Positions 2,192 through 62,566 of a stretch of DNA of 64,000 bases are shown here, in pieces. The position numbers and the translations under genes are program-made. Under the pieces are notes generated by a model, which worked only from the letters and a program-made list of their open reading frames with translations, had not been told where the DNA came from and did no database searches. The stretch is from the NCBI GenBank assembly GCA_918797485.1, contig CAKKNE010000003.1, positions 3,782,001 to 3,846,000 of the forward strand, written 5' to 3'. Within the stretch, counting starts at the first letter, position 1; each line of letters opens with the position of its first letter. The stretch is from Pelagomonas calceolata. Taxonomy: Eukaryota.

Positions 2192-2216
2192 GCTAGCGGC
2201 CGGTAAGACACTAGCA
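2192..2216 (+). promoter_or_regulatory. Conserved intergenic CTAG-n-CTAG motif copy
   Basis: gctagcggccggtaagacactagca between divergent genes; near-identical to copies at 8852, 16180 and 16233. Confidence 0.55.
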
Positions 2217-2478
2217 ACACTGGCAAAGCGAGTCGGGCGTGGGCGCTGCAGCATAGCAATCGCTGCGGGGAGTTTGTGCCTGCTGTGGCATTGATTCGCG
2301 CCAGAGCGAGCTGCGCAACAGGCTGCGAAACTCTCGCGTTGGGAAGGCTGGCCGCATAGACTATCTCCCAGCGCCGACTCGGGAGGCAGCAGCGCCGCAG
2401 CGATCGACGCCGTCGACGCGCCACCTCACAGGACGTCCTACCGCATTAGTCGCAAGGCGCAGGATCGACAGGACGAGC

Positions 2479-3594
2479 ATGGCCCAAGTCTGGTGCGTCT
2501 ACGACGTCCAGGGCGACCGCGACGCCGGCGAAAACGCCTTTGAAGTGTTTTGTAGTGATCCGGATGCCCCAACGCTCGCTGAATTGCAACGCTCGTGCCC
2601 CTTCACGTCCACGGGCGGCGACTGGCGCTGGCGGGCGAAGGTGGCTGATGACGTCTTCGGCTACTGCTGGCGCGACGTCCGGGACGCGCACGAGCCTGTG
2701 GGCGCCGAGCAAAGCGGCGATGCGCTCGTCGTGCGCATGCGGGTGGTCGATGTGTCTCCACAAGCCATCGCGCGGCGCCGGCTGAAACCAGGCAGAATGC
2801 CGCGGGCGCGGCGCGCCGCCAAGGGCTACGCCGATGCTCCGACTGGAGGCGGCCGCGCGACGTGGGAGGAAGCGAGTCGCGCGAACGGCTCAAGAGCGCA
2901 CGTGCCGCCGCCCTCGCAAAGAGCGCCGCCGCCGAAGCCGCCTCCTAGAAAACCTTCACTGGACATGGTCGACCTCGGCGCCGCGCCTGAACCACCAAAA
3001 AAGAATGCCCAGTCCCTCTCGCAAGACACCGTCCAACAGCTCGTGAGGGAGGGCAAGATGCGCTGGGACGACGTGGACCAGCGCTACGTCGCCGTCGAGG
3101 TCGTCGAAGAGGTTCGTATCGGTATCCAGGCCGTGTCTATTGGGAACGAGGACTTGTCCTCGAAGGCTCCCGAGGTGCAGCAGGCCATCCTCGAGCGGAG
3201 GCAGGCCTTACAAGATGCGCAGGAGGAGAAGCGGGCTAGACTAAGGGCGCAGCGGTCCGCCGCCGAGAGCGAGGCCGACGCGCAAATCGCTCTCAAAGCG
3301 CAACTGGATCCTCAGTTAAAGCGGTGGAGCGAGGACCACGGCAAGAAGAAGAACATCCGGGCGCTATTGGCGGGCATGGACCAGGTCATGTGGGAGGGGA
3401 GCGGCTGGAAACCCATCTCGATAGGCGACCTGCTCGAGCCGAAGAAGGTCAAGCGGGCCTACTACAAGGCGTCGCGCTTCGTGCACCCGGACAAGCTCGT
3501 TAATTTATCGATCGAGCAGCGCTTCGTCGGGAAGCGGATCTTCGATGCCTTGTCCCAGGCGTACGCGGAGTTCGAGGAGAGCGGGATGGGGTGA
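2479..3594 (+). CDS. Auxilin-like J-domain protein with N-terminal DIX-like domain
   Basis: C-terminal NIRALLAGMDQVMWEGSGWKPISIGDLLEPKKVKRAYYKASRFVHPDKL (auxilin-type J domain, HPD); coiled coil; N-terminal DIX-like segment (FGYCWRDV). Confidence 0.85.
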   Translation: MAQVWCVYDVQGDRDAGENAFEVFCSDPDAPTLAELQRSCPFTSTGGDWRWRAKVADDVFGYCWRDVRDAHEPVGAEQSGDALVVRMRVVDVSPQAIARRRLKPGRMPRARRAAKGYADAPTGGGRATWEEASRANGSRAHVPPPSQRAPPPKPPPRKPSLDMVDLGAAPEPPKKNAQSLSQDTVQQLVREGKMRWDDVDQRYVAVEVVEEVRIGIQAVSIGNEDLSSKAPEVQQAILERRQALQDAQEEKRARLRAQRSAAESEADAQIALKAQLDPQLKRWSEDHGKKKNIRALLAGMDQVMWEGSGWKPISIGDLLEPKKVKRAYYKASRFVHPDKLVNLSIEQRFVGKRIFDALSQAYAEFEESGMG

Positions 3595-3620
3595 GTAGGT
3601 GTGTGTTGTTTACTTGAATC

Positions 3621-4757
3621 TTACGCGGCGACGTCCTCGCGCTTCATTCGTGCACCCTCGAGAATCGCGAGGGCACGTATTGTCTCCGGGTGATGATTTC
3701 CGAAGACTCGTCGGCGGGCTCTCACCACATCCTCGAGTATTGTCACGGCCTCTAAAACATCAGCTCGGGACGCGCCCGCGTCGCTGTAGAGGGCCTCCGC
3801 AAAGGCCGCGTGGCAGTTCAGCGTCATTACGTGATTGGACCCGAGCGCCCGCCGGCACTGTGGGATGAGCTTGCCCGCAAATTCCTTCGCTTCGGCGTAT
3901 TGCCCTTGCTGAATTAACGAATGTGCAAGGTTGTTGCCGGTGTGAAGCGTACTTTTGTTTGTCGTTCCAAGTAGTTCCTTGCATCTAGCGTAAACATCAC
4001 GCTCCATCGCGAGAGCCTCGTCTAGTCGCCCGAGCGAGTGGAGACAATTGGCAAAATTGGATCTGGTGACGATAATGGGGTATTCTGATATCCCGAGACG
4101 CCTCTGAGTGGCCAACTGGACCTCAACTATAGCCAGCCGCTCCGCGTGACGTTCCGCTGCCCACAACCCATTCCCGAGCACCGTTAGCGCATTGACTCGA
4201 GCCCAATCCGTCTCCGGCCGGCCCACGTACGTCTTCCAGCAAGCCCACCCGAGCGCGCACCACACGAAGCCGTGGTATCGTTGCTCGCAAAGGCCGCACT
4301 CTTCCCAACGCATCCACCTCTTATCAAACGCCTCGCCGTCCAAGTCTGTCTCCTCGCCCTCGTCACACAAAATCTTTGCTTGCCGCGCCAAGCACGACAC
4401 GTGCGCGACGCCCAGTTCCGGAGACGAAACGCCGTCGCGATCTCCGCACGCACATCCGCGCACGAGGCCTTCTCCCGTGTGCGGATGCACGGCCTCGAGA
4501 CAGATGTAGCATTTTTGCCCTTCGTGTCGTCCGCGGCACGCCTCGACCGCGACCGCGACGGCCTCCTTGTATTTTTTGTCGGCGTAGTATTGCTCCGCGT
4601 TGCCGCCGCGGTGTATTTTTTTGCAGATCTGCTTGTGGCCGCGGCGCCAGTGGTCCATCTGGCAAGTTTTGTTACAATATCTTGTGTGACAGCGTATGCA
4701 TCGCGGCGCGTCGTGGGCCAGTGGGGCGGCGCAGGCGGGGCAGGTTGTGAGGATCAT
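3621..4757 (-). CDS. zf-MYND + RING-variant + TPR protein (expanded pelagophyte family)
   Basis: CPAC..CIRC..YCNKTCQMDHWRRGHKQIC (MYND); CYIC..CAC..HVSCL..CGLC (RINGv-like); kinesin-light-chain-type TPRs (RRVFGNHHPET). Confidence 0.8.
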   Translation of the reverse strand: MILTTCPACAAPLAHDAPRCIRCHTRYCNKTCQMDHWRRGHKQICKKIHRGGNAEQYYADKKYKEAVAVAVEACRGRHEGQKCYICLEAVHPHTGEGLVRGCACGDRDGVSSPELGVAHVSCLARQAKILCDEGEETDLDGEAFDKRWMRWEECGLCEQRYHGFVWCALGWACWKTYVGRPETDWARVNALTVLGNGLWAAERHAERLAIVEVQLATQRRLGISEYPIIVTRSNFANCLHSLGRLDEALAMERDVYARCKELLGTTNKSTLHTGNNLAHSLIQQGQYAEAKEFAGKLIPQCRRALGSNHVMTLNCHAAFAEALYSDAGASRADVLEAVTILEDVVRARRRVFGNHHPETIRALAILEGARMKREDVAA

Positions 4758-5071
4758 TTTTGTGGCGTGAGGCGTTTGGGGTCGCGCGTCGTGATTTTGT
4801 TTCTAGTAGCTTACAACGCTAGCTTGGCAATTTTTCAGAACGCGACGGGGGAGCTCTGAGCGGGTCCTCGGTAAGTTGTTGGTGTGTCCCTATTGCGTGC
4901 TCAGGCTCAGGCTAGTTACGTCGCGGGGTCCCCCGTACCCTCCCGGTCCCCCCGGGCCCGCCCGTCCGGCAGGACTACGCAGGCTAGTATGTATCGACGC
5001 TAGGCCGAGGAGATTTCCTCCGCGTGGAGCATCTCCATAAAAATCCAGCCCACGTGCTCACAATCGCAACG

Positions 5072-5909
5072 ATGAAGGCCGCCGCCCTCCTCCTCGCCCT
5101 CGCGGCGTCGACGCATGCCACCGTGCTCACGCCTGACAACTACGACGACCTCACCCAGGACAAGAGCGTGACCCGCGGCGTCCGCGGCGCGCATGCATGC
5201 ATTTTTGTAGCGCGCGCACGTCCGCGTACCCGCACCGCACCAGGCGCATACGCTGCGCGCGCGCGCGGCGCGAAACCGCGACGCGCGCAAAGACTGCGGA
5301 CCCGCTCGACGCGCGCGTAACTCACACGCCATCGCCGCGACCCGCCACAAAACGCAGGTCTTCATCAAGTTCTTCGCGCCCTGGTGCGGCCACTGCAAGA
5401 AGCTGAAACCCACCTGGGACATACTCATAGACGAGTACAAGGGCCACAAGGACATTTTGGTCGCCGACGTCGACTGCACGGCCGAGGGCAAGCCCCTCTG
5501 CGACGCGAATGGAGTGAAAGGATTCCCGACGCTCAAGTACGGCGACCCGAGCGACCTCCAGGACTACCAAGGTGGGAGAGACGAAAAAGACCTCAAAAAG
5601 TTCGCGTCCGAGAAGCTCGGGCCCCAGTGCGGCGTCAAGAATTTGGACCTCTGCTCCGACGAGAAGAAGGCGCAGATCGCTTCGTTCCAAGCGATGGGTG
5701 CCGAGAAATTGGGCGAATTTATTGGAGAGCAGGAGGCGAAGATCAAGGAGCTCAACGAAAACTTCAGCAAGCAAGTGGAAGACCTCCAGAAGCTCTACGA
5801 GGGCTACATGAAGGACAAGGAGGCCGCCGAGGCCGCGCTCAAGGGCCAGGGGCTGGGCCTCGCCAAGGCCGTGCGCAAGTCGCTCGAGGCCACGACGGAC
5901 GAGCTCTGA
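5072..5909 (+). CDS. Protein disulfide isomerase-like thioredoxin-domain protein, ER-resident; exons 5072-5167 and 5358-5909
   Basis: Signal peptide MKAAALLLALAASTHA; splicing GT-AG intron 5168-5357 joins DKS|VFIKFFAPWCGHCK in frame; GFPTLKY; C-terminal TDEL. Confidence 0.9.
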
Positions 5910-6073
5910 GGGGCGCGGGCGTGCGTGTCCTCCCCTATGCCCTATGACGCGGCGGCGGGCCTAGACCGGGTCCGCGGCCGCCGAGCCCCCCGCCGCCCGG
6001 CGCGGCCCCCGCGACCACGCGCCGCCCGCGTAAGGTGCGACTCGTGACATTGTCTCTTATACTCTAGATCGGC

Positions 6074-7525
6074 CTAGCCGACCTTCTTTGCGAAGAATGG
6101 GCCGCCAGCGGCGTAGCCGGAATTGCGATAATATGTAGAAGCTATTGGGCAGCAACCTCCTTCGATGCATGTTATCTCGTCCTCCAATCCGAACCCATTC
6201 GTCGGATAGCTGCGGCCGCCGCCGCCATCGTGGTATGTCCGCGTGTACGTTTCAGAACAGATGGACCACCAGGGGCACAGACCACATCTGAGGCCCGACT
6301 CCGCGTACCGGTCCTCGTCAAGCGCCTTCTTCCTCGTCCAGTAAAAGCACGAAAGTGGCCAAAGCGGAATACACGGGCTGCAACAGCAGCCGCACCAGGT
6401 GCCCGCGAGGTCCCTCGTCTCGACCTTGCGGAAGGGCCGTTTCTGCGAGTGTGGGCGTTTTTTGAAGCCTCCACCGGCCGTTCCATCGGCCGAGAACGTC
6501 ATCCAATCGAAATCATTGGTGCCCGGCTTGCGCGTCAAGACCTTACCATTCGCCCGCGGCCCAATACAAGAAGGGGGAACACAACACACCCACGAATCAA
6601 ACGTCTCGATCGCGTCGGGCCCGAACGGAATCACGGTCTTCGATCTGCAGCATCTCCCGTCCTCACACGGGGCCGAATACTCGCCCGAGATCTCGCCCGT
6701 GCTCAGCAGGCCGTCGTCCGGCGGGCCGGTGTGCAGGTCCTCCGGCGCGAGCGGCGGCGGGCGTCCTGCCCATTTCGATCTGTCGAGGCCTCCGCGCGGT
6801 AGCGTGACGCGGTAGACCGCCATTTGGTCCTGAGCTCCAAAATCCCCCTTATGAAAATCGACGACGCCCTCGAAGCCGGCGAAGCGGATGTTTTCATGCT
6901 TTATGTACTCCAGCCCGACAAGGCCGTGTCGCTGATAGCTCACGTCGTCCGCGCTGGCGGACCAGGAAAGCCGGGCACCCTCTCTCTCGCGACCAATTAC
7001 GAGAATGCCGCTCGGCGCGTTTTTCTGCACGAGCTCTTCGACGAGCCGGCCGAAGGCCACTCGGGCACCCGTGAAATCGTTCCATTCAATGTTCAGACCA
7101 TACTTTAACTTGACGGGCATCGCGCGGTCATCTTTTTTCTCGTGCCAGCGGCCGAGGAACTCGACAGAGCCGACTCCCTCGCCCGCGCCGCCCTCCGCGG
7201 GCGCCTCGCGCTCCATCACCTCACTTACGACCACGGGCTGCGTACTTGCTGCGGGCTCCGCGGGCCTCACGTCGACGGGCTCCGACTCTACGGCCTCCGC
7301 CGCGACGGGCTCCGCAGCGGCAGCGACGGCGGGCCGGTCGTCTGCAGCGTCGCTGTCAAGAAACGCGTTCGTGACGGCGACGAAGCCCGGCCACGCCTGA
7401 AGCACGCCCGGCGTCGCCGGGTACGGGCCCCAGGCGGCGCGCAGCGCGTCGCACTCCGGCCTGTTGTACCAGTCGGCCATGCGATGGTACATCTTTGTCT
7501 CGTCGGCGCTCGCCGCGGGAGCCAT
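6074..7525 (-). CDS. Hypothetical protein with Cys-rich C-terminal region
   Basis: 483-aa ORF with coding-like composition; WCGCCCSPC and other CC motifs; no family recognised. Confidence 0.55.
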   Translation of the reverse strand: MAPAASADETKMYHRMADWYNRPECDALRAAWGPYPATPGVLQAWPGFVAVTNAFLDSDAADDRPAVAAAAEPVAAEAVESEPVDVRPAEPAASTQPVVVSEVMEREAPAEGGAGEGVGSVEFLGRWHEKKDDRAMPVKLKYGLNIEWNDFTGARVAFGRLVEELVQKNAPSGILVIGREREGARLSWSASADDVSYQRHGLVGLEYIKHENIRFAGFEGVVDFHKGDFGAQDQMAVYRVTLPRGGLDRSKWAGRPPPLAPEDLHTGPPDDGLLSTGEISGEYSAPCEDGRCCRSKTVIPFGPDAIETFDSWVCCVPPSCIGPRANGKVLTRKPGTNDFDWMTFSADGTAGGGFKKRPHSQKRPFRKVETRDLAGTWCGCCCSPCIPLWPLSCFYWTRKKALDEDRYAESGLRCGLCPWWSICSETYTRTYHDGGGGRSYPTNGFGLEDEITCIEGGCCPIASTYYRNSGYAAGGPFFAKKVG

Positions 7526-7840
7526 CGCGAAGCTGCCCGCGGGAGTCGGTCGCGATGCAAATGGGCTGCCGCCCCGGGGAGCGTCTGGGGCTCGAGGCTC
7601 TCCCGACCCGCGCGAAGACGCGAAGACGAACGAATCAAATCATCATCGCCAGAAGAGTCGCCCGACGCCTCGGCGCGACCCCGGCGCCCCGAGGTGTACA
7701 TGCGAGAGAAGCACAAAACACAAACCAAAGCGCCTCTGGCAGCGCTGTGGCCGTGCGCACGCCATCGACGCGGCCGCCGCGACCCGGGCAGCGCACTCGA
7801 AGACGCGTGCACCAGGCAGCCATCGCAGAGGGCAGCCCCC

Positions 7841-8353
7841 ATGGCCCAGACCGCTGCCGATGCTTTCGACTACAGCGCAATTAATTTGCACATGGCGAAA
7901 CAACTCGTCAAGGACCTGCTCGAGGCCTTCGACGCCGAGGGGAATCGGACGAGGCTGGCCCGGGCGCTCGTGACTGCGCAGGAGAAGACCGATGCGCTGA
8001 TGTTAACCGTCACGCCGCTCGCCGTCGACATTGCGTCCGAAGCCTTATCAAGGTGGGGCATTGTTGAAAACGAGGGCGACGCCTTCGTGCGTGTGATGGA
8101 GCGCATCTCGCTATTAGCTCCTAGAGATGAAGAGTTGTCGTACGACGTGTATCAGCTTCACCAGAAATTTCTGCCCGTACCGCCCAAAGAGTTACTGGAA
8201 GCGGAAGCCAAACGAGTCAAGGAGGAGCTCCGGCAGAAAAAACGAATGGAGCAGCAGGCGAAGGAGGAAGAAGAAGCCGCAGCCGAGGCTCAACGAAAGG
8301 CGGAAGCGAGGCAGTTCGCGCGGGAGACGTTCGGCGAGGGGACGACCGCTTGA
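7841..8353 (+). CDS. Protein C10 (C12orf57/Grcc10)-like helical protein with C-terminal coiled coil
   Basis: From ATG 7841: MLTVTPLAVDIASEALSRWGI...DEELSYDVYQLHQKFLP resembles the P_C10 domain pattern (ends L..KFLP). Confidence 0.55.
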   Translation: MAQTAADAFDYSAINLHMAKQLVKDLLEAFDAEGNRTRLARALVTAQEKTDALMLTVTPLAVDIASEALSRWGIVENEGDAFVRVMERISLLAPRDEELSYDVYQLHQKFLPVPPKELLEAEAKRVKEELRQKKRMEQQAKEEEEAAAEAQRKAEARQFARETFGEGTTA

Positions 8354-8804
8354 GTAAGGTGTTGTTGTGTTGCTCGTAGTGCGGCGACGGCGTCTCTGGC
8401 GGCGTCTCTCGTGGTTCGCGACGGCGCGGCCGGCTTTCGCGGCGAGCCCTGTGCACTTCTCGCCTAAATCTAGAGCCTAAATCGGCGCACGAGTCGCCGT
8501 CGTCGTCGGGCCGCGGCGTGGGCGCGGGCGCGGGCTCGTCGTCCTGTGCGCTGATTAGTTGTGCCTCCGACGCCCAAGCGTCCCGCGGGCAAGCTCGGTA
8601 GTCAAATGCGGAGCTAGGCGTACCCTAGAAGTCCGGGGAGCCGTCTCCCGGACCCGTAGTCGTAATAGAGGTGCCGCGCGCGGCGGCCAATAGCGCCGCT
8701 CTCAAGCTTTGAAACCGGTGCAGAGTTTCGCGCGTGTGCTGCACGCGAGAACGCGAGGCGTTTTGTGCACGCTCGCGTGCCTTTCTAAAGGCCAATTGAC
8801 AGAA

Positions 8805-11411
8805 ATGTGAGCAAATTTTGAGTCTGTTTTACGTTTTTCTGAAAAACGCGCGCTAGCGGCCTGTAAGACACTAGCAAGCCAGCTTTTCGTCCCACACAGG
8901 TCGGCCGCGTACGTCTACGGCCACGGAACCAATAATGCTGCTGCTGGTGTTGTTGTTCGAGACGACAAGCCTGATCCATGGAAGCACAAGCGGGAACTGG
9001 AAGCGCAGCGCAAGACGCTCCAGCCGCACGAGCTGGATGGCCTGAACGAGGCGTCGTTCGCGCAACGGCAGGCCTGGAACCCCAAGGGCGGCTCGTACCC
9101 GCCGCTGGACACGTCCGGGTACGGCCCCATCCAAGAAGCTCTCAAACAAAAGGTCGGCGACGCGTACGTCCGCGTGCTGTCGCCCTCCGCGGGCGCCGCG
9201 CTGAAAAAAGTCGGAGCGGCGTTCCGGGAGAGCGACAAGGGCTGGGGCGGACGAGGATACAGCTTGTCCGAAAATCAGGGCCGCCGCGGCATCCCGTTTC
9301 ACCGTGTCGGGACGGGCGAGCTGACGCCGAGCGGCGAGCATTTGCGCGGCTTGGTGTCCCACGAGCCGTTCGACGTCGTCGAGGACGTCGTGCGGACGCT
9401 CGTCGGCGACGAGTTCCTCGACGATAGCCACACGCGCCTCCTGGTGGCGAACCCGACGCGCGGCGGCGTGCTCTCGCAGGGCCCGCACGCCGACGCCGTC
9501 GTCGTCCACAAGCACAAGGTCGAGGAGGAGGAGACGCACGAGCAGCTGCGCTGGCTCTGGATGAGCGCCATGGCCGTCATCTGCTTCGTCGTCAGCTTCG
9601 AGAACGGCAACTACGGGATCCCGCGCGAAGGCCCGCTCTTCGGGATTTTCGCTTGTGTCACCCTCGAGCTCCCGGCCAGCGCGATCTACGCGCTGACGGC
9701 GCTGCTCGCCGGCCAGAAGCCCTTCGGCTTCGTGCGCATCGACGGCGAGATCTACAAGCTGCGCATCTACCACCTGGTCTTCGGCATCAAGGAGCAGCGC
9801 GCGCTGACGGTGGCGTCGGTCCTCGTCCCGCTCGGCGGCGCCGCCGCGGCGATCGCGGCGGCCGACCGGCGCATCGACGCGCTCGCGCGACGCCTCTCCT
9901 GCGACGACGTGCTCACGGTCGCCGAGCTGTTCCCGCTGCGCGTCGCGCCGTGCGTCGTCGGCGCCGTCAGCGGCCTCCTCGGCCTCGGCGGCGGCAGCGT
10001 GCTCTGCTACGGCGGCGCGCCCGCGGGCGACGCCGACGCCCTGGCGGCGGCCGTGGTTTTGCCGGCGGAGGCGAAGAAGCTGCGGCGCGAGAACCGGCGC
10101 GCGGCGGACGCGGCCCGCGAGGCGTTGCGCGACCTCTTCGTGCGATCGGGCGACGCGCGCGGCGCGCGCGCGCTTCTCGGTTTTAGCGGACACGATACGG
10201 CGGCGCACGACGCGGGCGCGAACGCGCTCGCCGATCTCGAGACGCTGGTCGAGCGCGAGGCGCGGCGAGACGCGCGCGCACGCCGTGAAGCGGAACTGTG
10301 CGCCGCGCACATGCGGCAGTTTAGGCCGTCGGATGAGACGCTAGGGCGTTTCCAGATGCCGACGGATGTGTTCGCGGCGCCGTCGGACGCGGCGTTCGGT
10401 GCTGTTCTGCCGCCGCCCCCACCTTTGCCTGCGCGGCACTTTGTTCTGGATGAGACGCGAAGGCGTTTCCAGGTGCCGACGGATGTGTTCGCGGCGCCGT
10501 CGGACGCGGCGTTCGGTGCTGTTTCGCCGCCGCCCCCACCTCTGCCTCGGACGCTAGGTTTCCAGGAGCAGGGCCCGCGCCTCGCTGATTTAATGGACCA
10601 ATTCTTTCCCAAGGGAGGAACGACGTCCGAGCGGCCGCGGGTCGAGCTGCCGCAGCCAACGACCTTCGAGCGGCCGCGGGTCGAGCTGCCGCCGCCACGG
10701 GACGATGAGCGCCGCGCGAAGGCACCGAGGGCGCCGGGGGTGCCGAAGGAGGTGTGTGCCGCGATGGATTCAGCGCTGGGTAGGCTGGAGCGCCGCCTCG
10801 AGACGCCGGATCAACGCGAGGCGCGGCTGGCGCCGGCGCGGGAGCGGTGGCGAGACGCGCGCGACGCCTTGCGCGAGAAGCACGGGTCCTTCTGCCGCTG
10901 CAAGAACTCCAAGTGCCTCAAGAGGTACTGCGAGTGCTTCGAGCGCGGCGTGCTGTGCGGCGACTCGTGCAAGTGCGAGAACTGCGAGAACATTGCGGGC
11001 TCGGCTTCATTGCGGGAGGCGCGCGCTGCGATCGCGGAGCTCCCGCCGTCGCGCGACGGCTGCACCTGCAAGAATAGTCGCTGCCTCAAGCTCTACTGCG
11101 TCTGCTTTAAGGCCGGCAGCAAATGCGTCGCGGCGTGCAAGTGCGTCGACTGCCAGAACGGCCGGCCCGCCGATGCGCCCATCCCCGCGCCGCCGAAGAA
11201 GCGCCGCGCCGCGCCGTCGAAGAAGGCCGCGCCGCCGAAGAAGCGCCAGAGAGTTGACCGCGCAGCCGACGAGACCGCCGACGATGCTGCTGGGGAGGTT
11301 CGAGGAGGCCTACTGCTCAACGCGGCGCGGCTGGCGGCTCTTAGGGAAGAGTACGCGCGCGAGCGCGAGCGGGCCGCCGCGGGGGCGACGCCGTCGCCGC
11401 CGTCGCAGTGA
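8805..11411 (+). CDS. Tesmin/TSO1-like CXC (CRC) domain protein; start inferred as AT|G split by intron 8807-8899
   Basis: Two CXC domains CRCKNSKCLKRYCECF..C..C.C..C.N and CTCKNSRCLKLYCVCF..C...C.C..C.N; NLS-like PPKKRR; frame is open upstream of 9174 back to 8900. Confidence 0.8.
8852..8876 (+). promoter_or_regulatory. Conserved CTAG-n-CTAG motif copy
   Basis: gctagcggcctgtaagacactagca, identical to the reverse complement of 16180-16204. Confidence 0.55.
10331..10547 (+). repeat. Two-copy in-frame tandem repeat, 117-bp period
   Basis: DET..RFQ(M/V)PTDVFAAPSDAAFGAV(L/S)PPPPPLP twice, starting 10331 and 10448. Confidence 0.85.
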
Positions 11412-11775
11412 CGGGCGTCGCGGCGGGCCCGCGGACTATCGCCTGATATGAACGTCGCGGATCCGAGACGTGGGGCGCGCGTCGTGCGCGTCGACCGAAT
11501 CACGATTCCATAACTTGTTGTTCTTTTGGAAGTTGTGCTACGCCGGAAGATCACGCAGTCCTGCTTCCTAGAATCTCAGAGCACGCTAGCTCGCGCTCTC
11601 GTTAAAGTTTAAAACTCAGCAGGCGCCCGCTCGATTTACGAGCGCGCGGTACAAAAGAATGACCGCCCTGGCAATGCCGCACGTCGACAGCGTCCAGAGC
11701 TCAACGCCCACAGCTTGGCGCGCCGCGCGCGGCCGCTCAGCGCGCGGTTTCGGCCAAAAGCCGACTGAGTTTGAA

Positions 11776-14765: not shown

Positions 14766-14899
14766 AACTAGGCGCGTACCCCCCTTTCCCCCCATTCTAA
14801 CTTGAACGATTACATTGGCCTCGTCGCCGCGCAGTCAGTCCGCCTTCCGAGTGGCTCTGATGAGTATACAAATCTTACAAAGGGCCGAACGACGACGCG

Positions 14900-15412
14900 C
14901 TACGGGAGGCTCTTCTCGAAGGCCTCGACGGCTTTCAATGAGGGCAGCTCGTGGCTGTACGTCCCCGCGACGACGAAGGGAGCTCCGGCCTGCGGCGCGG
15001 CCTCGACGCGGGGATCGCACAACCGCGCGCAGAGCGCAACACTGGCAACGGCCGCGGCGCCGGCCGCGACGTGCGCCCTCACCTCATCGCTCTCGTCCGC
15101 CGGCACGAGCGCCGACAGGCTCGCGCCGAGCGCCGCTCCTAAAATGCCGCATCTACGTGTACACGCCGCGGCGGCGTCCGCCGACGCCTGGGGCACGAGC
15201 AGCGGGGGCGGCGTCACCACACCTGGCTTGTTCAAAGCCACGGCGGGCGGCTTTGCCTTCTCGGCGGCGAGGCCGAGCTTGCGCATGGCCGCGCGCAGAT
15301 TCTGGCAGGGCAGGCTATCAGCCTTGGAGCAGCCAAGGTCCTCGAAGTCTTTATTGAGGCCGCGGATGGCCATCACCTCGTCGAGGGCGTTGCTGCCGAA
15401 GAGCTTGTCCAT
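14900..15412 (-). CDS. Hypothetical protein
   Basis: ~170-aa ORF from MDKLFGSNALDEV with coding-like codon use; an upstream exon is possible. Confidence 0.45.
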   Translation of the reverse strand: MDKLFGSNALDEVMAIRGLNKDFEDLGCSKADSLPCQNLRAAMRKLGLAAEKAKPPAVALNKPGVVTPPPLLVPQASADAAAACTRRCGILGAALGASLSALVPADESDEVRAHVAAGAAAVASVALCARLCDPRVEAAPQAGAPFVVAGTYSHELPSLKAVEAFEKSLP

Positions 15413-16179
15413 TCCTGTGTTTGGCACGAGAGCTGTCTCTCACTAGAACGCTCTGTTGCCGCAGTGCCGCGCTTAGCCTAGCCTAGCCTCTGCTTAACCG
15501 ACGGGTTTTTGCGCGCGGTCTTGCGGGACCCCTCCCCGCCCCAGGGGACTCGTCGCAGAGGTCGTGCAGCGATGTGCGGGAAAAAAAGGGGAACCGCCAC
15601 CACACAACCTTGGGTCTGCTGAACGCGGACGCGGAGGCGCTTTGCTTGAGACCCGACCCAGAGCTAGTCAGGGTATTCGGGATCCCGCCGTGCCGCCGCT
15701 CCGTGGAGTCGTGCCCGAGTGCCGCCGCCAAGGAGGCCCCCGTAGCCTAGTGATCCTCGCCGCCGCGCGCACGAGGACCCGACGGGGAGTCGCGAAAAAC
15801 ACACCCGCCAGGTGCCCCGCACGACACGACGACGGGCCCGGGCGGATCTGTCCAAGGAAGCAGCTTGAATTGCTGGGGTGAGTCAACATCGCCAATGAAG
15901 GCCCGTCGACCCGTTGAATTGCGAGGAAGCCGAGGATGAATCGCCTACTTGCCCAACATGTCACGCCACGCCGAACGCCGCCATGACGCGTTCGCGAGGC
16001 CCTCGCGCACGCCCGGCTGGACTTAGAGATCAGAAATCGCGTGGAGATCAGGTGTCGTCGTCCTCCTCCCCATCAGAACTAGATTCAGAGTCAGACGCGG
16101 TCGTGCGATACATGCGAGGAACGACATGCTCGCGTTCCTTCGTCGCCCACGCACCCAACGTCTGCGCTGCGCTGCTGCT

Positions 16180-16257
16180 TGCTAGTGTCTTACAGGCCGC
16201 TAGCCACGCGAAGCCGCGGCGCCGCGCTGCGGGCTAGCGTCCAGTAAGACACTAGCA
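16180..16257. promoter_or_regulatory. Inverted pair of the conserved CTAG-n-CTAG motif in a divergent intergenic region
   Basis: tgctagtgtcttacaggccgctagc (16180-16204) and gctagcgtccagtaagacactagca (16233-16257). Confidence 0.6.
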
Positions 16258-16430
16258 AGCGGCCGAGGTTGCTGCGACTGCCGCTGCAGCGAACGCTTTG
16301 CTAGAAAACTTTAGAACCACACGGGCTTATCTCTGAGACGCAGCGACCGACGGCGGAAGCGTCCTGTGCCCAGGGGAGCAGTGTTTGACAACTTGCACAA
16401 AAGTGCTCTCTCAACAAGCAGCAACTACAA

Positions 16431-38435: not shown

Positions 38436-39527
38436 ATGACTCTCGGCGACGTATGGCTCGACTTCGACCCCGCGGCCCTCGTCGCAACGGGATTAGACGT
38501 CGACGACGATCTCGCATTCCTGGCGCTGCTGGCGCTGCAGCGCCGCGGCCGCCTGAACTTGATAGGAGTGTCGGTGACGGCGGGGAACGCCGCGCTGCGC
38601 GACACGTTGGCAAACGCGAAAAGTCTCCTGCGCCTCGCGGGTGTGAAGCTCGAGCCGGCGGCCGGCGCGTCCTATCGTGATATGCACGTACCCTGGCCGT
38701 GGGTCCGGCGCCTCCACAACGTGCGCGGCGACGTCGCGTCCTCGCCCGACGCCGTCGATGCGATCCGATCTGCGGTGCTGGCGCGGCCGCCGCACTCGCT
38801 GACGATCGTAGCCCTCGGGCCGCTGACGAACGTCGCGGCCGCGTTAATGGATTCAGACGTCGCGGGCCGCGTCGGCCGCGTCGTGTCCATGGGCGGCGCC
38901 CTCGACGGCAAGAGGCTCGACCTGAACTGGCTGTCGGACCGGGCCGCGGCGCGCGCCGTCGTCGCGTCTCGGGTGCCGCTGACGGTCGCGCCCGTGGAGC
39001 TCTGCGCGCAGGCCGCCGTGCAGCCAGAGGACGTCGACCGGCTCGTGGAGAGGTGCTGCCCGGGCGCTGCCGTTTGTTCATTGGCTCGGGCTATGCGGCG
39101 GCAGTGCGCGTTCTCGCGGCGCTTTGTTAATAAGGGGCTCGTGGCCCGCGTGTCAAATGCACACACTGCCCTAAAAAGCGACGCCTTCGTGCCGTGGGAC
39201 GTCGTGGCGGTCCTCGCGGTTGCAGAGCCGGAGCTGTTTGGGGAGTGGCGCGAATTCGACGTCGCCGTGCCGCCGTGTGTTTCGGGCGAGCCGTGCGACG
39301 GCACTGTCGTAGTCCGGAACGGGTCGGGGGTCCTGGCGCCGACGCGGCTCGCGCCCGGCGGCGTCGTCGACGCGCTGGTCGACCTGGTCTGTGACGTGCC
39401 GGCCGTCGGGCCGGCGCCGGGTATTGTTGGCGCGCCGGTGCTTTTCGGTTCAGTCGCTGTCGCGGTTTTGGTGCCCTTGTTGTTGTTGAGAGGAGTAGTG
39501 AGTAAGTTTAGATCAAAGACCAGCTAG
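38436..39527 (+). CDS. Inosine/uridine-preferring nucleoside hydrolase family protein, C-terminally anchored
   Basis: WLDFDP...DVDDDLA; VSVTAGN; ALGPLTNVA; MGG; LNWLSDRAAA; PWDVVAV; hydrophobic tail. Confidence 0.85.
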   Translation: MTLGDVWLDFDPAALVATGLDVDDDLAFLALLALQRRGRLNLIGVSVTAGNAALRDTLANAKSLLRLAGVKLEPAAGASYRDMHVPWPWVRRLHNVRGDVASSPDAVDAIRSAVLARPPHSLTIVALGPLTNVAAALMDSDVAGRVGRVVSMGGALDGKRLDLNWLSDRAAARAVVASRVPLTVAPVELCAQAAVQPEDVDRLVERCCPGAAVCSLARAMRRQCAFSRRFVNKGLVARVSNAHTALKSDAFVPWDVVAVLAVAEPELFGEWREFDVAVPPCVSGEPCDGTVVVRNGSGVLAPTRLAPGGVVDALVDLVCDVPAVGPAPGIVGAPVLFGSVAVAVLVPLLLLRGVVSKFRSKTS

Positions 39528-39661
39528 CGGCATGTAACACACTAGCACCATCACATTTTTCTAGACGCCGCTGCGCCGCCTATAAGCCAAAGGCTGCCCA
39601 AAAATAATGCCATGACCCCTTCGCATCGCTAACTTAGTCCAACGCGGCCGAATTCGCATCG

Positions 39662-44566: not shown

Positions 44567-45500
44567 TCAGAGAAAGATCGGTTGCCTGTGTGGGAACGAC
44601 ACAGTCACGAAACGACCGCGGCTCTCTCACGAGGCATGTAGACTCTCATGCGGCCGCATCGACGGCGTCGAGGCGGTGCGGCACCGCGTCGACGCCATCG
44701 CCGCGACCACGTCATGTTGAAGCTCATTTTATGCTCTGAGTCAGCACCATCCGGGCGGCTTGTGCTTGCAGGCCTTGGAGTGTGCGACCTGTGTAGAAAT
44801 GAAGTCTCGCGCTGAATCATATGGCTTGATTTCCACACAGGCGCCAGACGGCGGCGGGTGCGTGCCCGAAGACTCGGCCACACTTGTGCGCGCAGGGATA
44901 GTTCCCATCAGCGTCTTGGGGAGGCTTCGACATCGCCTGGTGGTTGCGTCGGAAGCGCGAGGGGGCGAACGGCCGCGGGGCCGACGACGCCTTGGGCGCG
45001 CGTCGGGGCGGGGCCGGTGCTTGCGGTAAGGCCTTGCGCGGCGGCTTGAGGGATAAAAGGAGCCAGGCGGCGCGGTTGGGGTTCTCGTCGAGAATGCGCA
45101 CGGCATCTAATTGGGAGGGCTTGACGGGCTCGTAGAGGAGCTCGGGCGTCCGGTAGACGGCTCCCGGCGAAGCCACGGCCGCGAGGAGCTCGCGCTTCTC
45201 GACGCCGGGCGTCGGCGGGAGCCGCGCCGCGGAGGCGGCGCGCGGGGAAGCTTCATCGTCCGAGGAGCTCACCTTCGGTACCGGCGCTTCGACAGTGACG
45301 CGGACGCCCGGCGGCCACGCGGGGAGCGCGGCGTCCGGGCGGCGGCCCGAGGGGCTGCGTTGCTCCGGCGGCGTCACCGTTCCCGCTCGTACGAGAGCCG
45401 ACGGCACGACGACGCTCATCTTGGCGGCGGGGGGTGCCTTGGCGAGGGCCGGGGCGGCCGACGCGATCTTCGTGGTGCTTGCGGTGGGCGCGGGTGTCAT
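44567..45500 (-). CDS. Low-complexity protein with C-terminal C2HC-type zinc finger; introns 44789-44849 and probably 44586-44747
   Basis: Splicing restores CAHKCGRVFGHAPAA|VAHSKAC; the second intron gives a KPPGWQPIFL* end (KPPGWC* if unspliced). Confidence 0.6.
44789..44840. mobile_element. Minimal 52-bp introner element
   Basis: ctgtgtagaaatga ... tgatttccacacag TIRs; TSD degenerate; intron 44789-44849 on minus strand. Confidence 0.75.
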
Positions 45501-47211: not shown

Positions 47212-47261
47212 GTGTCCTTTGGTTTTGATTTTTGTGTGAACTAAATTTCCAAGCTTATAGA

Positions 47262-48092: not shown

Positions 48093-48454
48093 GGCTGCGT
48101 GCGCTCGCGGCGGCTGGCGTCCAGGTGTCCTATGCGCGCGGCGCGGTGCGTCGGCGGCGTCCCAAGTGTCCTGTGCGCGTGCGCGGCGCGTCGGCGGCGG
48201 GGGCTTCCAAGAGGTCCAAGAGGGCAGGGCTCCTATATGACTGCGCGGCAGAAGCTGCGCTGCAGGGCTGGGCGGAGAGGTCCCGCAGGCCTTGTTATTC
48301 TTGCAAAATGGCTACGGCAGCGTCCAAGCGGCGGCGTCTGGCTCGAGCCGGCGGCTTGCTAGTGTCTTACAGCGCTAGTTAAAGTGCCTTAACGAAGATG
48401 GCGACGGCGTAATATAATAAGCGACGCCGTTCGAGGGTAGCGACGGCGTCCCGC

Positions 48455-48847
48455 TCAGCGGCGCTTCTTCTCCGGCGCCTCCTGGACGGCGACGGCCCCG
48501 GCGAGCGAGAGCGCGAGCATGAGGCCCTCCGGGACGTAGTGCATCGGGTACTTGAGCGGGAGATTCGGCGTGAGGTAGCCGAATCTCGCGTTCCAGGGGT
48601 AGAGGATGCCGATACCGACGGACGCCGCCAGCGCGGCCTTGGCCGCGACGGCCGTCTCAACGTTCATCATCAGGAAGACCTCGCAGAAGATGGTCACGGC
48701 GTGGCCGCGGATCCAGAACTCCATCTCCGGCGTCGACGCGATGTCCCAGTGGTCCGTGACCATGCCGCCGGGATTGAGGAGCATCATGACCCCATAGACA
48801 CCGAAGATGGCGCACGACGCCTTGACGTAGGTCGCCGCGAAGCCCAT
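48455..48847 (-). CDS. Small hypothetical membrane protein
   Basis: ~130 aa from MGFAATYVK with four hydrophobic segments and strong GC3 bias. Confidence 0.7.
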   Translation of the reverse strand: MGFAATYVKASCAIFGVYGVMMLLNPGGMVTDHWDIASTPEMEFWIRGHAVTIFCEVFLMMNVETAVAAKAALAASVGIGILYPWNARFGYLTPNLPLKYPMHYVPEGLMLALSLAGAVAVQEAPEKKRR

Positions 48848-49157
48848 AGTTGCGTCCGGGTGCGGCTTGCGTGCAAAGGCAGCGATTGATGCGCGGCACC
48901 GATCTGTTCTCTCGTTCCTCAAGGGGGGCTAAGTTTGCCCCCCATGCGTTCCTGTCGCGTGCAGCTAGCTGCTGTAAAGACACTAGCAAGGCCAGACACT
49001 GTCATGCCCGCCGTTACTTGTGTCGGTCGCCCCTGGGAGCGCTCTTGATTAGTATTAGCCTAGTATACCCATCAGAAAGCCGCCGGCCTGGTTGTCCTTG
49101 CCCGTCTTGCCATGTGCCGCCGTCGACCGATTGCCAAATATAGTACAACACTCATAC

Positions 49158-51320: not shown

Positions 51321-51834
51321 TGTTATTGGAGCTGTTATGCGTGCCGCGCTGGCGGCGTCTGAGCAGTTCTTTGAGCAATGCGCGCTGGCGTCGCGTCGGC
51401 GTCGCGTGTGTGCTGCTCGTTCAGCGGTCTGGATAATGTAATATATTGCGACAGCGCTCGAGAAATGCAAGAGCTACTGCGGTATTGAATGAATTCGATA
51501 GTTTCTCAGTTTTGAGGACGTGTGCGCGTGATGCGCGGCCGTCGTCGACGATGCCAAGGCAAAGCTAGTATCGATACTACGCTAGCAAAATCGCGCGAAG
51601 CCGACGCTTCGAGCAGGCGATGGACTCCTCCAGATTCGACTGACTCCTCCTCGGCTGGCTTGCTGCTCCTTTGGTAAAGGTCTCACATCTCGCCAACGAG
51701 GATAAAAAACGAGCTGTCCTACACCCTCGCGGCCGCATAGCTGGATTCAAGGGTCGGCAGTGATCATAGACTTGCCAAAGTTCGCCGCGGGCAAACAACC
51801 ACTGCAAAAAACGCATCGATAAGCGACTCCAGCC

Positions 51835-53322: not shown

Positions 53323-53852
53323 GAAGTTTAGGTAATTATCTTAGTAATGGGGCGAAACCCGTCTTGCTGACCGCGCACAGTGTGCGGAATTCGGGCAACC
53401 TGAACCCGATTTTTGGGCACAGCCAGTGACAAAAACCGACGAGCCGCGGCACGTAGTCACGGTTTTGATAAGAAGAAGTCATCATCATATATAGCGGACG
53501 CTACGGTAGAGAACCGCAACGACCGGAAAACCGCACAAACTCGACAAATGGCCATGCACCTGAAGCGCTCGCGCCACGCGGGCCGCGTGTCGCACCGGTA
53601 CTCCACCATATCGGAGGCCGCCACTTGCTAGGGCCGCAGGCCCAGGACGCCGTCGCGCCTGATGAGGCCGGCGGCGCCCGCCGACTCATGTCGGTACTTT
53701 CGACGCCGTCGACGCTAGAGCGGACGGCGTCGACAAATTTTTAGACGACCTTGTGTCAAAACTCTCGTGGCAGCCCGTCGACCTCTTGAGGACGACGGTG
53801 TCGCCGCACACCCTCTTCGTCCGCCGACCTATGCCGGCAGGCGTCATTGAGT

Positions 53853-54077
53853 GCGCTCAGACGACCTGGACGCACACCACACGCTGACGACGTGTGGACC
53901 ATCTAGTCGCCGCCGGCCGCGCAAGCGGCCGGCGGCGGCGCCAACACGGCAAAAGACAAGGAAGGCGATTTGCCGCGCGCACACCATCAAGCCTCCATGG
54001 CGCCGCCGAGCCGAGCAGACGCGACGCTGGACGCGCTCAGATGACCTGGACGCAAACCACACGCTGACGACGTGTGG
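53853..54077 (+). repeat. 45-bp direct repeat pair, 180-bp spacing
   Basis: gcgctcaga(c/t)gacctggacgca(c/a)accacacgctgacgacgtgtgg at 53853-53897 and 54033-54077. Confidence 0.85.
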
Positions 54078-56036
54078 CACCACCACCCAATCGATGCCCT
54101 CCCCTCGACTACTACGAGAACCGCGGCGGTTTCGGTGGACGCGCTGCGTCCTCCGTCGCCATGATGTTTCGTACGAGGGTGCCGTGTCGCCGCCGCACCA
54201 GGGAGCCGCCGTCGCCCGGTTCCAGGGCGCCGACTGCTCTTCGGCGCGGCAAAAAAGATAAGCCGCTCTCTCGATGCGATGATCCATCCCCTTGCTGTTC
54301 AAATCCCCCCCGACGTCCCCAAAGGCACCCCCACGAAATTGAGCTCGCGAGGATGCCTTGTCGGAACACGAGTACCGCTCTTTGACGGCGCATGCCGTCT
54401 AGCACTTGAAGCCACCTCTCCCGCCGAACGCGCGGTGCCCTGCTCACGACACACCAAGTGGAGTAAAGTGTGAATCTAAAATCGTAGTCTACGCGACGAC
54501 TGCGTCTTGAGGGATAGTTAAGCGGGCCCCCCTATACAAAGAAGAGCCAAACCGAGCTAGCGTATATCGACACACTAGTAAATTTAAAGATACGCCTCGA
54601 TAGCGTCAAAAGAAGGGCCCAAATTCAGAATACATCCTAGTCGTTCGGCGCGACCAAAGATTTCAAACTAGCGGCCCGGGAACATACCCTCGCGCCTCCC
54701 GGAAGGCACCGCCCGCGACATTCCCGGATGAGTCTTACGGCTCGCCAAATTACACCAGCGATTGATGGCGCCTTCTACCGTCCAAATGGGACATTATATC
54801 AACTCCAGCCCAGTTTTCATACATAATCGACGGAACCGGAGCCGACGGCCCGCGCTCGGAGGGCGGGAGAAGAGTTTTACTAGACAACTCCCGAGTTTAT
54901 GTTCGTTTCCATCCGTTTGTTAGTGGTAGAGTCCATCCAGCCCGCCTCAACATTTACTGAGCCCAGTCTCTTGATCCGTACGAGCCGCGGGATTCGGCGA
55001 CTTTGGTACCGCGCATTTATATACAAACGGGTAAATCAGTAGAACCCGCGAGTATCAGCGACGCAACCATCCAGATGGACCGTAACGCCGTTGTTCTATT
55101 CACAATCGACTGACTTGCCCGTTCTCCGCGGACGACGGTGTGTACGCGGGGCACTGAATTGGCCCCAGACCGGTGAGTTGTGAAATAAATTCGCGTTTCA
55201 GGCGCTTCGGTTCTAGGACGGTCCATCCATTTGGGCTGGACGGCTACCACATTGCTCCGAGACCCCAAGATGCTCCGCGCGGCTCGGCCATCCCGAGAGC
55301 CCACTATCTCTTTCATTTTGGCACAACACCTAGTCCTGCGGCCATCAGCGCGTGTACCTTCACCATGGACCATGACGCGATCATTTATTCCATGACCGAC
55401 GGACTTCCGCGAGGTCCAGATCAAGATGTTCACGTCCCGAGCGTTGGCAGTCCAAAGTACCCTTCTCGTGGTGTAGATGTCATATACTTGTAATTGACTA
55501 TCGCTGGGGTAGTATGGGGTCCAACGAGACCGCTACGGCGACTACTGGAGGCCCTCGGGTAATTGACGTTTTTTACGGGAACGGGGCGCCATCGGGTCCA
55601 AATTATTTACTTTTTTCGGATGTATATCGGCTCGCAGACTCCCTCCGGGATAGGTCTGGGGTCGGTTAGTCGCCTACACCGCAAGCGCAAGCGCTTGGGG
55701 CTCCCCAGAGAGCTCTGGATCCAAAACTTTGGGGGATCATGGTGGAGATCTGTGGGCAGTTGAGCACCTGTCCCGATATGTCTATACCGATGGAAGCCTT
55801 GGCGCATGCGGTGTAGACCACCACCCACGTCTAGTAACGACCTAGGCGACCCCGGGGAGACCTCAGGACAACGAATCGACAGGATTCCACCGACACGGCC
55901 GTCATGCTGTGACCGTCAATATCGCGAGTTAAAAAAATTAATTTTTTCGCCCCCCAGTAAGTGTCCCATTGATCTCTTTGGACCAGTAGCGAACTGAAGG
56001 ATACTCGAAAAGCTGCATGGCACATTTCGTTTTGCT

Positions 56037-56061
56037 TGCTAGTGTCTTACGAGACGCTAGC
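56037..56061 (-). promoter_or_regulatory. Conserved CTAG-n-CTAG motif copy
   Basis: tgctagtgtcttacgagacgctagc, 75 bp upstream of the fucosyltransferase ATG. Confidence 0.5.
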
Positions 56062-56135
56062 ATCAAAAAGCGCATCGACCGAGAAAAGGCAGCCCATCGA
56101 TCGCGTGGGGACGCGGGGCAGCCCCACCGACACAT

Positions 56136-57488: not shown

Positions 57489-57506
57489 CACAATGTAGTA
57501 TACTTA

Positions 57507-58682: not shown

Positions 58683-59027
58683 GCTTTATGCAGCTTGTCA
58701 GACTCAATTTATGCAAGGCTGATTCACGAAGCCGTGCAAGGATGATTGAGAACGGATTATAATAACGTGTTCGGCGTTGCCAGCTTGCGTGATCGTGTGC
58801 TGTCGCGCCTGACGTGTCAAAAAGGTTCGAGCTTGAGGCGTGCTAGAGGGGCTATAGCGCTAGCTCGGTTCGCGGGAAAGCGGGGGAGGCAGTTGGGAAG
58901 AGATATAAATGCAATACAATATCGACAAAAATGGATCTCGGCCGCGAAGACAGAGCACGCCGCGCACCGCGACACGAGAAACCAAGGATCGATATATGCT
59001 AAACTTATAAATAAAACGCCCCAGTCC

Positions 59028-60602: not shown

Positions 60603-61220
60603 GCATTGCGGCGGCGAGCCAGCGCACGCGCGGCCCCCGCGCGCGCAGGTATTTGCTGTATCGACTGCAGCGCTGCTGCAGGCCTGTGCGCCGCGCGCTG
60701 GCGTAGCGCGGCAGCCCGCGCTCGGTCGCATCGGTTCAGTATCCATGCCTAAGGCTTGCTAGCGTTATATAGCCATGCGGAAGTGGTCTAGCGGCGCGTT
60801 TATCGACTTCCCGCTTAAAATCGCAGCAGCCGTTAGTGCGGGTTTTGCGGCTAAATCGTAAGTCCCCCCAGAGTCGGACACCGGCCGGAGTACCCCTGGA
60901 CCAACACGGAAGAGCGTGGGCAGCCCTTTTAGTGCGGCAACGCCCAGGCTCGCGCTCGTGTGACGCGCCGACTCCGACGGTGTCGCAGGTATGCTGCCCA
61001 TTTTGGAGCAGCCGCGAGTATGATGCCGGTTCATATATCTATTCGCCCCGACGGTACCTGCCGGCCGGGTCCGGGCCCGGGAAAGCCGCCGAAACGCCCT
61101 CGGCGACGGGCAGCCGACGGCACGGGTCGTCTCTTGGCCCCAATCTACCCCCAGACCCAGTTCTGGCGCCAACGAGGCGCAAGATATACGCCACCGAGGA
61201 GAAAGCACACACACAATACG

Positions 61221-62195
61221 TTAAGAGGCCGGCGGCGCCCCGACAAAAAAGCCGCTCCGCCGCACCGGCGGGGCCACGCGCATGGTAGGCCGCTCCAGCA
61301 AAGGCGGGGGGCCCACATGGATCCCCCGTCGCCGATGCAGATGCCTATGACGATGGTGGTGCCGCGCCGGCGTGTTTGAAAAGAAGTCCAGCACGTCGAC
61401 CACCGACGGGCCCCTCATATCATTACTGGAAGGCCGCGCCAGATCATTAAACGTATGGGCCATCGTTTTATGTAAACACGCCGTCGTATTTGCTCTACAA
61501 CTCACACCGACGCGGCACGTCGCGTGCGTGCTCTCCACCACATTGTATGAAGCGCATCTATTCACGCGGAGCCACCGCTCGTAGACGCCGAAAAAATGAA
61601 CACATTCATCTGACCTCTCATCTATGTTACAGCAGCACTTGGCACCGCTACAACAACCAGTAACCTTGACCACGCCGTCCTTCAACCCGTGGTGCATGGT
61701 TATCGGCGTCGGTCGCGTCGTGTTCAGGTGCGTTTGGTGGCCGCCCCACGGCGAAATGCCGTCAAATAGATGGGCGGCTTTCGAGACCATATACCCACCG
61801 TTCGAGAAGCCAGCCCCAAACACGCGGTCCGCTCCTGTTCTATCTCGTACGTCTTCGACGAGCTTCTGGAGGAAGCCCACGTCGTCCAAATTCTGCTTTG
61901 CGGCGTCGCCGCAGCAGGCCCCGCCGTTCCACGACTTGTGATGACCATAAGGTGCGGCCGCGGCCCAGCCCCGGGACTGGACTAGTTTCGCCGTGCGCGC
62001 CCAGGCCCTTAATGGCGTGCCGCCGAAGCCGTGAATGAGGACTACCACTACCGGCGCGTGGCCACAAACGCCGTGGGCCCGTGGTCTCCATAAATGGTAG
62101 CGCCGCACGCCTAAGTGCAGAGCTTCGACGCAGTTGTGGTCGGTGTCCTGCGCGCGGGCCGCCGCGACGAGGGCTAGCAGGCTGAGATTGCGCAT
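61221..62195 (-). CDS. Secreted alpha/beta-hydrolase (LpqC/PHB-depolymerase/feruloyl-esterase-like)
   Basis: Signal peptide; LIHGFGG; WNGGACCG....DDVGFL; GFSNGG nucleophile elbow; HG..D. Confidence 0.85.
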   Translation of the reverse strand: MRNLSLLALVAAARAQDTDHNCVEALHLGVRRYHLWRPRAHGVCGHAPVVVVLIHGFGGTPLRAWARTAKLVQSRGWAAAAPYGHHKSWNGGACCGDAAKQNLDDVGFLQKLVEDVRDRTGADRVFGAGFSNGGYMVSKAAHLFDGISPWGGHQTHLNTTRPTPITMHHGLKDGVVKVTGCCSGAKCCCNIDERSDECVHFFGVYERWLRVNRCASYNVVESTHATCRVGVSCRANTTACLHKTMAHTFNDLARPSSNDMRGPSVVDVLDFFSNTPARHHHRHRHLHRRRGIHVGPPPLLERPTMRVAPPVRRSGFFVGAPPAS

Positions 62196-62566
62196 GTCTC
62201 GCGCTCGGTCGCGTCGAAGGCGTGGGGAGGCCAGAGCAAGGGTTCCGCAGCTGCTCTTCCTAGGCTCTGCCGAGCTCTAAAGCCCCAAATGAGGCTGCCC
62301 AAGGCCAAAAACCACAAGGTTGCTAGTATGTTACCGGACGCTAGCATCGCTTTGCAGCACGAAACAAAAAGAGCAGGAAGCGCGGCCGTGATCGCCGCAA
62401 ATACACGCGGGAGGGCCGACCGTACGCACGTTGCCGCTGTGCTCAAAAAGAGCGACGAGTTTGCGTCGACTAGCAAATCACTGCACGCTGCACTGCGCTG
62501 CAGCGGGCGATACCGCGGCGGAACGCCGGCGACGCGACGTAGACACAACAGGACCACCAGTGAACC

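Follow-up and report, generated by a model that had tools for sequence, protein, structure and literature searches.

The stretch analysed here, which we call the window, is a 64-kb segment of a contig (CAKKNE010000003.1, positions 3,782,001 to 3,846,000) of Pelagomonas calceolata, a widespread and abundant open-ocean picoalga; all coordinates are given in window numbering. Its genes include those for thioredoxin/PDI, ribonucleotide reductase, pyruvate kinase, DEAD helicase, fucosyltransferase, Nop25 and MYND-TPR proteins, and scattered among them are copies of a motif with the consensus AGCTAGCGGCCTGTAAGACACTAGCAA, in which two CTAG boxes lie 16–19 bases apart within 27 bases. The motif had been noted beforehand from the sequence (here the original prediction) as nine strong and six weak copies close to gene starts, and was taken to be either a general promoter or chromatin-organizing element or a tiny dispersed repeat. 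It is real and probably functional, and the first of these suggestions is supported by its position, by RNA 5′ ends, by the mirror-symmetric composition of its flanks and by its turnover between orthologues.

All nine strong copies are present in the window. Seven fit the consensus with at most three mismatches where they had been placed, with no match in 100 shuffles, and lie at 2191..2220 (plus strand, 42.0 bits, in a divergent interval), 8851..8880 (plus, 46.0 bits, tandem interval, with a plus-strand gene downstream of it), 16176..16205 (minus, 47.7 bits) and its inverted partner 16232..16261 (plus, 42.4 bits), 39522..39551 (plus, 35.9 bits, upstream of the next gene), 56033..56062 (minus, 40.7 bits, near the fucosyltransferase gene start) and 62317..62346 (minus, 31.9 bits, in a divergent interval with the Nop25 gene). 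The other two, predicted at 48357 (reverse complement) and 48964, carry small indels and correspond to 48353..48380 (minus, 32.7 bits, in a tandem interval, with a spacer two bases shorter) and 48963..48992 (plus, 26.6 bits). The scores come from a profile for which 118 metagenome sites were used and whose spacer may vary by two bases, and by this measure the window holds 13 matches of at least 8 bits, against a shuffle mean of 1.1 (maximum 3, 30 shuffles), and 11 of at least 20 bits, against none in the shuffles.

The six weak copies fared unevenly: four (predicted at 4803, 11567, 51564 and 54556) reach 8 bits, and two (4982 and 58842) fall below that cut-off and are CTAG pairs 16–17 bases apart. 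The former comprise degenerate copies at 4797..4824 (minus, 23.8 bits, spacer two bases shorter, in a divergent interval) and 11562..11591 (minus, 23.4 bits, near the ribonucleotide reductase start), and weak copies at 51563..51591 (strand unassigned, 11.1 bits, in the interval separating the DEAD helicase and pyruvate kinase genes, which are divergent) and 54555..54584 (plus, 13.8 bits, in a repeat-rich non-coding stretch). The latter are the pair at 4984..5003 (minus) and that at 58843..58863 (strand unassigned), whose membership is doubtful. Among all CTAG pairs in the window the spacing peaks at 18 (10 pairs). The weak copies at 4984, 51565 and 54557, together with one in a contig from a prokaryote bin (L122), have a TATCGA or ATCGA centre instead of the usual one and may be a second class of site.

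A metagenome scan yielded at least 120 further loci with the motif, almost all with unrelated flanks (contigs with the motif, from metagenomes and prokaryote bins, are labelled L001–L123); three prokaryote-genome contigs, L093 (a duplicate of L032) and L084 (an orthologue of L005) were left out of the profile statistics. Over 120 distinct sites, information spans positions −2 to about +28, with none in the flanks beyond −3, and the motif is thus slightly longer than the 25 bp or so first assigned to it. In 102 of the 120 the left box reads GCTAGC. Because positions left unconstrained by the search pattern are nevertheless 70–97 % conserved, and unselected second copies in the locus flanks have their CTAG boxes 17–20 apart, the motif consists of two boxes and a conserved, slightly elastic centre. 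A likeness to the RFX X-box was rejected, since the base after CTAGCAA is mostly G and not C. A second promoter-side word, GGCTGCCC/GGGCAGCC, occurs in the window at 1942, 7830, 35762, 39592, 45955, 56116, 60918 and 62293 and in many loci; most of its occurrences cluster no more than about 200 bases from the motif, but promoters without the motif have it too.

Pelagomonas calceolata is among the listed members of three of nine protein clusters from the metagenome loci, as it is for the cluster of one window protein, and viral contigs gave no match to two motif patterns or to the flank that some copies share. Three contigs from prokaryote genomes, all from marine bins (L121, L122 and L123), carry the motif; since two of them are the same locus and one encodes a protein in a cluster named PAPS transporter B3, we read all three as algal contamination and reject a prokaryotic origin. 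The motif could itself act as a contamination marker for Pelagomonas contigs in prokaryote bins. Extrapolated to 32.4 Mb, the densities observed in the loci (nine matches in 228 kb) and in the window (11 in 64 kb) would give perhaps 1,300–5,500 sites genome-wide. We regard it as extremely improbable that the motif is a replication-origin consensus: it is long, information-rich and intergenic, with flanking A/T tracts and apparent phasing, and may be compared with the long yeast ACS (autonomously replicating sequence consensus sequence) and the promoter-associated GC-rich origins of Pichia, but one site per 6–25 kb is a high density for origins and the association with RNA 5′ ends is tight.

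The predicted non-coding placement holds for all 13 match centres, which lie outside hand-drawn gene spans covering 80 % of the window, and the single overlap with a stop codon that had been noted is that of the copy at 39523 with the end of the open reading frame (ORF) at 38436–39527. Placement relative to gene starts is non-random, with a match in 11 of the 23 start-containing intervals of the window and in none of the 10 convergent ones. Genes of the MYND-TPR family adjoin a motif copy in three loci (window 3621–4757, L012 and L056), in differing orientation. The genes named above were predicted to be unrelated in function, and they are; this bears on whether the motif is an ordinary regulon site, at which a conventional activator or repressor (e.g. 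a tandem AP2-domain protein on the two CTAG boxes) would control one co-regulated set. The predominant left box is the hexamer bound by Toxoplasma AP2XI-5, according to the part of that study drawn on here (PMC13734140), but the flanking genes have no evident common function and the motif is present in about half of the window's intervals with a gene start, and we consider a regulon site very improbable.

Four stranded polyA RNA-seq runs were aligned on 34.5 kb of the window, and 15 clusters of 5′ ends are among those listed, of which four were set aside (two inside a gene and two in a repeat region). For five of the 11 others listed the distance to the centre of a strong copy is 40–46 bases, and all five are beyond its GCTAGC end; one lies 25 from the weak pair at 4984, two at 128–136 from a copy, and three have no copy within 700 bases. 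Five of the eight motif-linked clusters listed are therefore at 40–46, a small number from one sample. In the first group are the 5′ ends of the ribonucleotide reductase RNA at 11622–11629 (about 46 from the centre of 11562..11591), of the fucosyltransferase RNA at 56088–56095 (about 42 from that of 56033..56062) and of the Nop25 RNA at 62376 (43 from that of 62317..62346), with minus-strand ends at 48933–48940 (about 40 from that of 48963..48992) and at 16200 (45 from that of 16232..16261; one run, seven molecules among the rows listed). The thioredoxin/PDI RNA has 5′ ends at 5010–5028, next to the weak pair 4984..5003, and the more distant ends are one at 51703 (128 from the centre of 51563..51591) and those of a minus-strand gene at 2067–2069 (136 from the centre of 2191..2220). 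The transcript that begins at the inverted pair (15482–16200, minus strand) is polyadenylated, polymorphic and present at about 100-fold depth; it contains no ATG-initiated ORF of at least 90 aa and is possibly a long non-coding or repeat-derived RNA.

In the wider set of loci, gene direction was called with a purpose-built codon model for 106 of 238 arms (132 remaining uncalled). Genes point away from the motif in 40 of the 51 left and 42 of the 55 right arms with a call, with no side bias (Fisher, P=0.82), in agreement with the claim that the motif occurs in either orientation. Both sides could be called at 32 sites, which comprise 14 divergent, 17 tandem and one convergent (P=0.001 against 25 %). 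The first ATG lies at a median distance from the motif edge of 156 bases on the right and 200 on the left, and ATGs cluster at 160–200 (28 of 87). These data allow the motif to be weighed as a core-promoter element, TATA-like or SNAPc-like, used by the basal machinery, with the start about 30 bases past the GCTAGC end and any nucleosome-like pattern merely following the start. The five sharp 5′ ends among those listed, all on the GCTAGC side at 40–46 from the centre, speak for such an element, but genes point away equally on both sides, and at the copies predicted at 8852, 39523 and 48357 the sole downstream gene start is on the other side; on this evidence, and that of the flanks described below, we think it rather unlikely.

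When the loci are aligned on the motif, CpG is scarce up to about 175 bases from it in both directions, and T exceeds A on the left whereas A exceeds T on the right. In each arm independently, CpG then rises in a step, at 177 on the right and 176 on the left (P=0.002 for each when compared with 500 jittered alignments), accompanied by a drop in CAG/CTG and an increase in CCG/CGG, and a CpG/GC bump follows at about 293–318 (P=0.012 and 0.006). The step was found in three separate locus subsets, and the position of the ATG was rejected as its cause, since it persists with the ATG nearer than 135 (n=31, P=0.012) as well as with the ATG farther than 215 (n=22, P=0.015). There is an excess of T-tracts, read outward from the motif, at 22–42 from it (24 of 107 and 39 of 111 arms, vs 2–11 and 8–14 in control windows), and this excess ends where RNA 5′ ends fall. 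The confinement of the CpG step to gene-starting arms is a further point for a core-promoter element, but arms facing a gene 3′ end also have the bump (18 of 25) and the T-tracts (9 of 36 vs 2.6). The bump near 305 runs smoothly over the 300-base extraction boundary and is seen on either side of the contigs (P=0.0017 and 0.0022), and on these grounds an extraction artefact is disfavoured as far as this can be tested; the rise in 57 short arms was not significant (P=0.64).

Features at equal distances on both sides may be the trace of positioned nucleosomes in a lineage with linker CpG methylation, as we infer from composition. One register that fits places the first nucleosome at about 30–177 with a repeat length near 200; another, with CpG-rich linkers near 125 and 305, may also apply. 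An intron-length peak near 210 in P. calceolata (10.1101/2021.10.25.465678) would fit a repeat length near 200, a fit made after the fact. Periodic, DNMT5-linked linker methylation occurs in algae including the pelagophyte Aureococcus, according to the parts of two studies drawn on here (PMC9998398, PMC9246332). Unphased CpG autocorrelation had no clear nucleosome-length peak, a phased G/C periodicity signal lay at the edge of the tested range (11.5) and was not used, and introner positions were too few to judge as a linker read-out.

The history of individual sites can be followed in orthologues. L027 and L072 are orthologous (81–89 % DNA and 90 % protein identity); in one of their promoters each has a single site, in a different place and in opposite orientation, and in the next L072 has a perfect site opposite a decayed copy that keeps both CTAG boxes. 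The orthologues L005 and L084 both keep the site, and both were selected for having it. The suggestion of a tiny dispersed repeat survives for a minority of copies with a shared, longer 5′ flank of 30–60 bases, which in seven of 135 copies exceeds the null maximum and in 13 the 99 % null, and not for the remainder. The shared flank is clearest directly upstream of the motif in L007, lies between two tandem copies in L051 and L058, and appears in diverged form at 4797..4824; because these 7–13 copies share it, some sites were probably delivered by the copying of a longer unit. A GC-rich repeat at 4913–4960 is also found downstream of the motif in L115, and RNA reads join it to a motif copy (4940 to 16177), which implies another locus where repeat and motif adjoin. 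Inverted pairs are present in the window (16180/16233, interior of 28 bases) and in L026 (interior of about 440 bases).

From the shared 5′ flanks, the tandem copies with flank between them, the 3′ flank common to L115 and 4913–4960, the RNA link to a copy from another locus and the inverted pairs it might be argued that the motif is the remnant of a mobile or tandemly copied element (e.g. a transposase-binding end) which inserts into open promoter DNA and serves no function in the host. We find this improbable. Target-site duplications (TSDs), for which the flanks were checked as the original prediction advised, are absent, the best of 560 boundary and length choices being two of 115 sites; about 90 % of flanks are unrelated though the motif is near-perfect; fixed-distance starts and composition features are unexpected for passive insertions; and one site is kept per orthologous promoter despite turnover. 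Nor did known element types match: no match between the interiors of the two inverted pairs was found and most copies are single, unlike the paired ends of terminal inverted repeat (TIR) elements or miniature inverted-repeat transposable elements. A Helitron 3′ end has a terminal CTAG followed by T, whereas in unbiased lists of CTAG pairs the outer box mostly precedes C or G (an upstream hairpin was not searched for), and the window gave no Rfam hits and no tRNA genes when considered for a small RNA gene or a tRNA-derived short interspersed nuclear element.

We therefore favour, with a probability of roughly 0.6, the reading that the motif is an orientation-independent site for a sequence-specific general regulatory (barrier) factor; its intergenic position, the RNA start often about 43 bases away and the mirror-image flank patterns make a factor docking site likely. 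Such a factor, perhaps dimeric as originally proposed, would bind both boxes and act as a barrier that holds a short region open, the T-tracts at 22–42 marking that region; transcription starts and neighbouring nucleosomes would then be set at fixed distances on either side, and the step in CpG at 176, like the bump near 305, would record the positioned nucleosomes. Since so long a site is unlikely to arise by point mutation, new copies are probably supplied when a short cassette is copied, and would then be kept by selection as their flanks decay. A bolder form, which we judge unlikely, is that of a lineage-specific master promoter element, derived from and still spreading with a short mobile cassette, at which a dedicated and possibly transposase-derived protein sets starts about 43 bases away and phases CpG-methylated nucleosome arrays at thousands of genes.

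Several points weigh against a barrier factor. Twelve of the 23 start-containing intervals have no match, and the absence of matches from convergent intervals is a weak test, since together these span just 1,082 bases. The five sharp 5′ ends all fall on the GCTAGC side, with none listed opposite, which hints at a direction; they come from a single sample, and polyA RNA-seq read ends approximate start sites only. The codon model was checked on its training genes only (58 of 60). Arms that face a gene 3′ end lack the CpG step (n=36, P=0.84), which therefore follows the transcription start rather than a pure barrier, and the bin positions for the subset and 3′-facing-arm tests were picked on the full data. 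In the window's own 22 arms the step is a weak trend (P=0.19) and the T-tract excess is not seen (3 of 22). There is no phased 10-base A/T dinucleotide periodicity around the motif, and all of the chromatin evidence is compositional.

The window has several further features. The stretch at 53350–55900 is repeat-rich and non-coding, with cross-mapping reads on both strands, and probably holds mobile-element relics. Introner-type repeats with inverted ends lie at 13807–13898, 50071–50163, 31939–32090, 32525–32680 and 44640–44840, and RNA shows splicing of the first (in a GC..AG reading) and the second; an intron of 402 bases with a GC donor is at 11679–12080. The ORF at 18985–31143 (plus strand, 4052 aa), whose promoter is without the motif, has DUF285 units alternating with other repeated modules and is likely to encode a large surface protein. 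Many stop codons continue, by eye, into GTAA or GTAG (TGAGTAAG-like), as at 3592, 8351, 18127 and 34488, perhaps a 3′-end signal.

We found no description of the motif in the literature, nor of Pelagomonas promoters, and the words motif and promoter are absent from the main text of the species' genome preprint, whose supplements might list the motif among repeat families. The best reading is that it works like a general regulatory factor site and is new in sequence, matching no site found. If a barrier factor does bind it, that factor would probably organize promoter chromatin at a large share of Pelagomonas genes, and the master element, if real, would supply the phasing signal so far missing for the periodic linker methylation of pelagophyte algae. 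The motif offers a handle for locating gene starts, for the design of expression constructs and for pull-down of the factor. It also opens two questions to testing: what determines the phase of nucleosomes and of methylation in algae whose linkers are methylated, and how a compact genome acquires and replaces regulatory sites of such great length.

Several known systems invite comparison. CTCF, ZNF143/SBS, DREF/BEAF-32 and the CENP-B box are long, high-information sites of animal proteins, and as a group are known for symmetric phasing (CTCF), head-to-head promoters, and spread by or origin from mobile elements; none has a sequence likeness to the Pelagomonas motif by eye (homologues were not sought). 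The sites of yeast Reb1, Abf1 and Rap1, which are nucleosome barriers, are alike in promoter location, orientation independence and symmetric spacing on both sides, but the Pelagomonas motif is unlike them in sequence, by eye, and about three times the length of the Reb1 site. The comparisons that follow draw on portions of the papers cited. At yeast Reb1 sites remodelers align arrays symmetrically regardless of orientation (10.1101/2020.02.28.969618), and the order of A-tract, motif and T-tract in Pelagomonas is the reverse of the Saccharomyces cerevisiae arrangement (PMC8347975). DNMT5-linked linker methylation would explain a CpG imprint of nucleosome position in pelagophyte DNA, and no DNA motif is named in those portions as setting its phase (PMC9998398, PMC9246332). 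The introners of Pelagomonas and Aureococcus are, like the motif, dispersed repeats of the same genome, but are introns of about 210 bases with TIRs inside genes, whereas the motif has 27 bases, is intergenic and has no TSD (10.1101/2021.10.25.465678). In Toxoplasma, the promoter hexamers GCTAGC (AP2XI-5) and GCATGC are 6-base palindromes found at −82 to −84 from starts in 12 % and 46 % of promoters, respectively (PMC13734140). The Pelagomonas motif contains GCTAGC, and both elements are common and fixed in position upstream of starts; the stramenopile motif differs in being a 27-base, two-box site whose GCTAGC, rather than standing free at about −83, is embedded and separated from the RNA 5′ end by about 30 bases.

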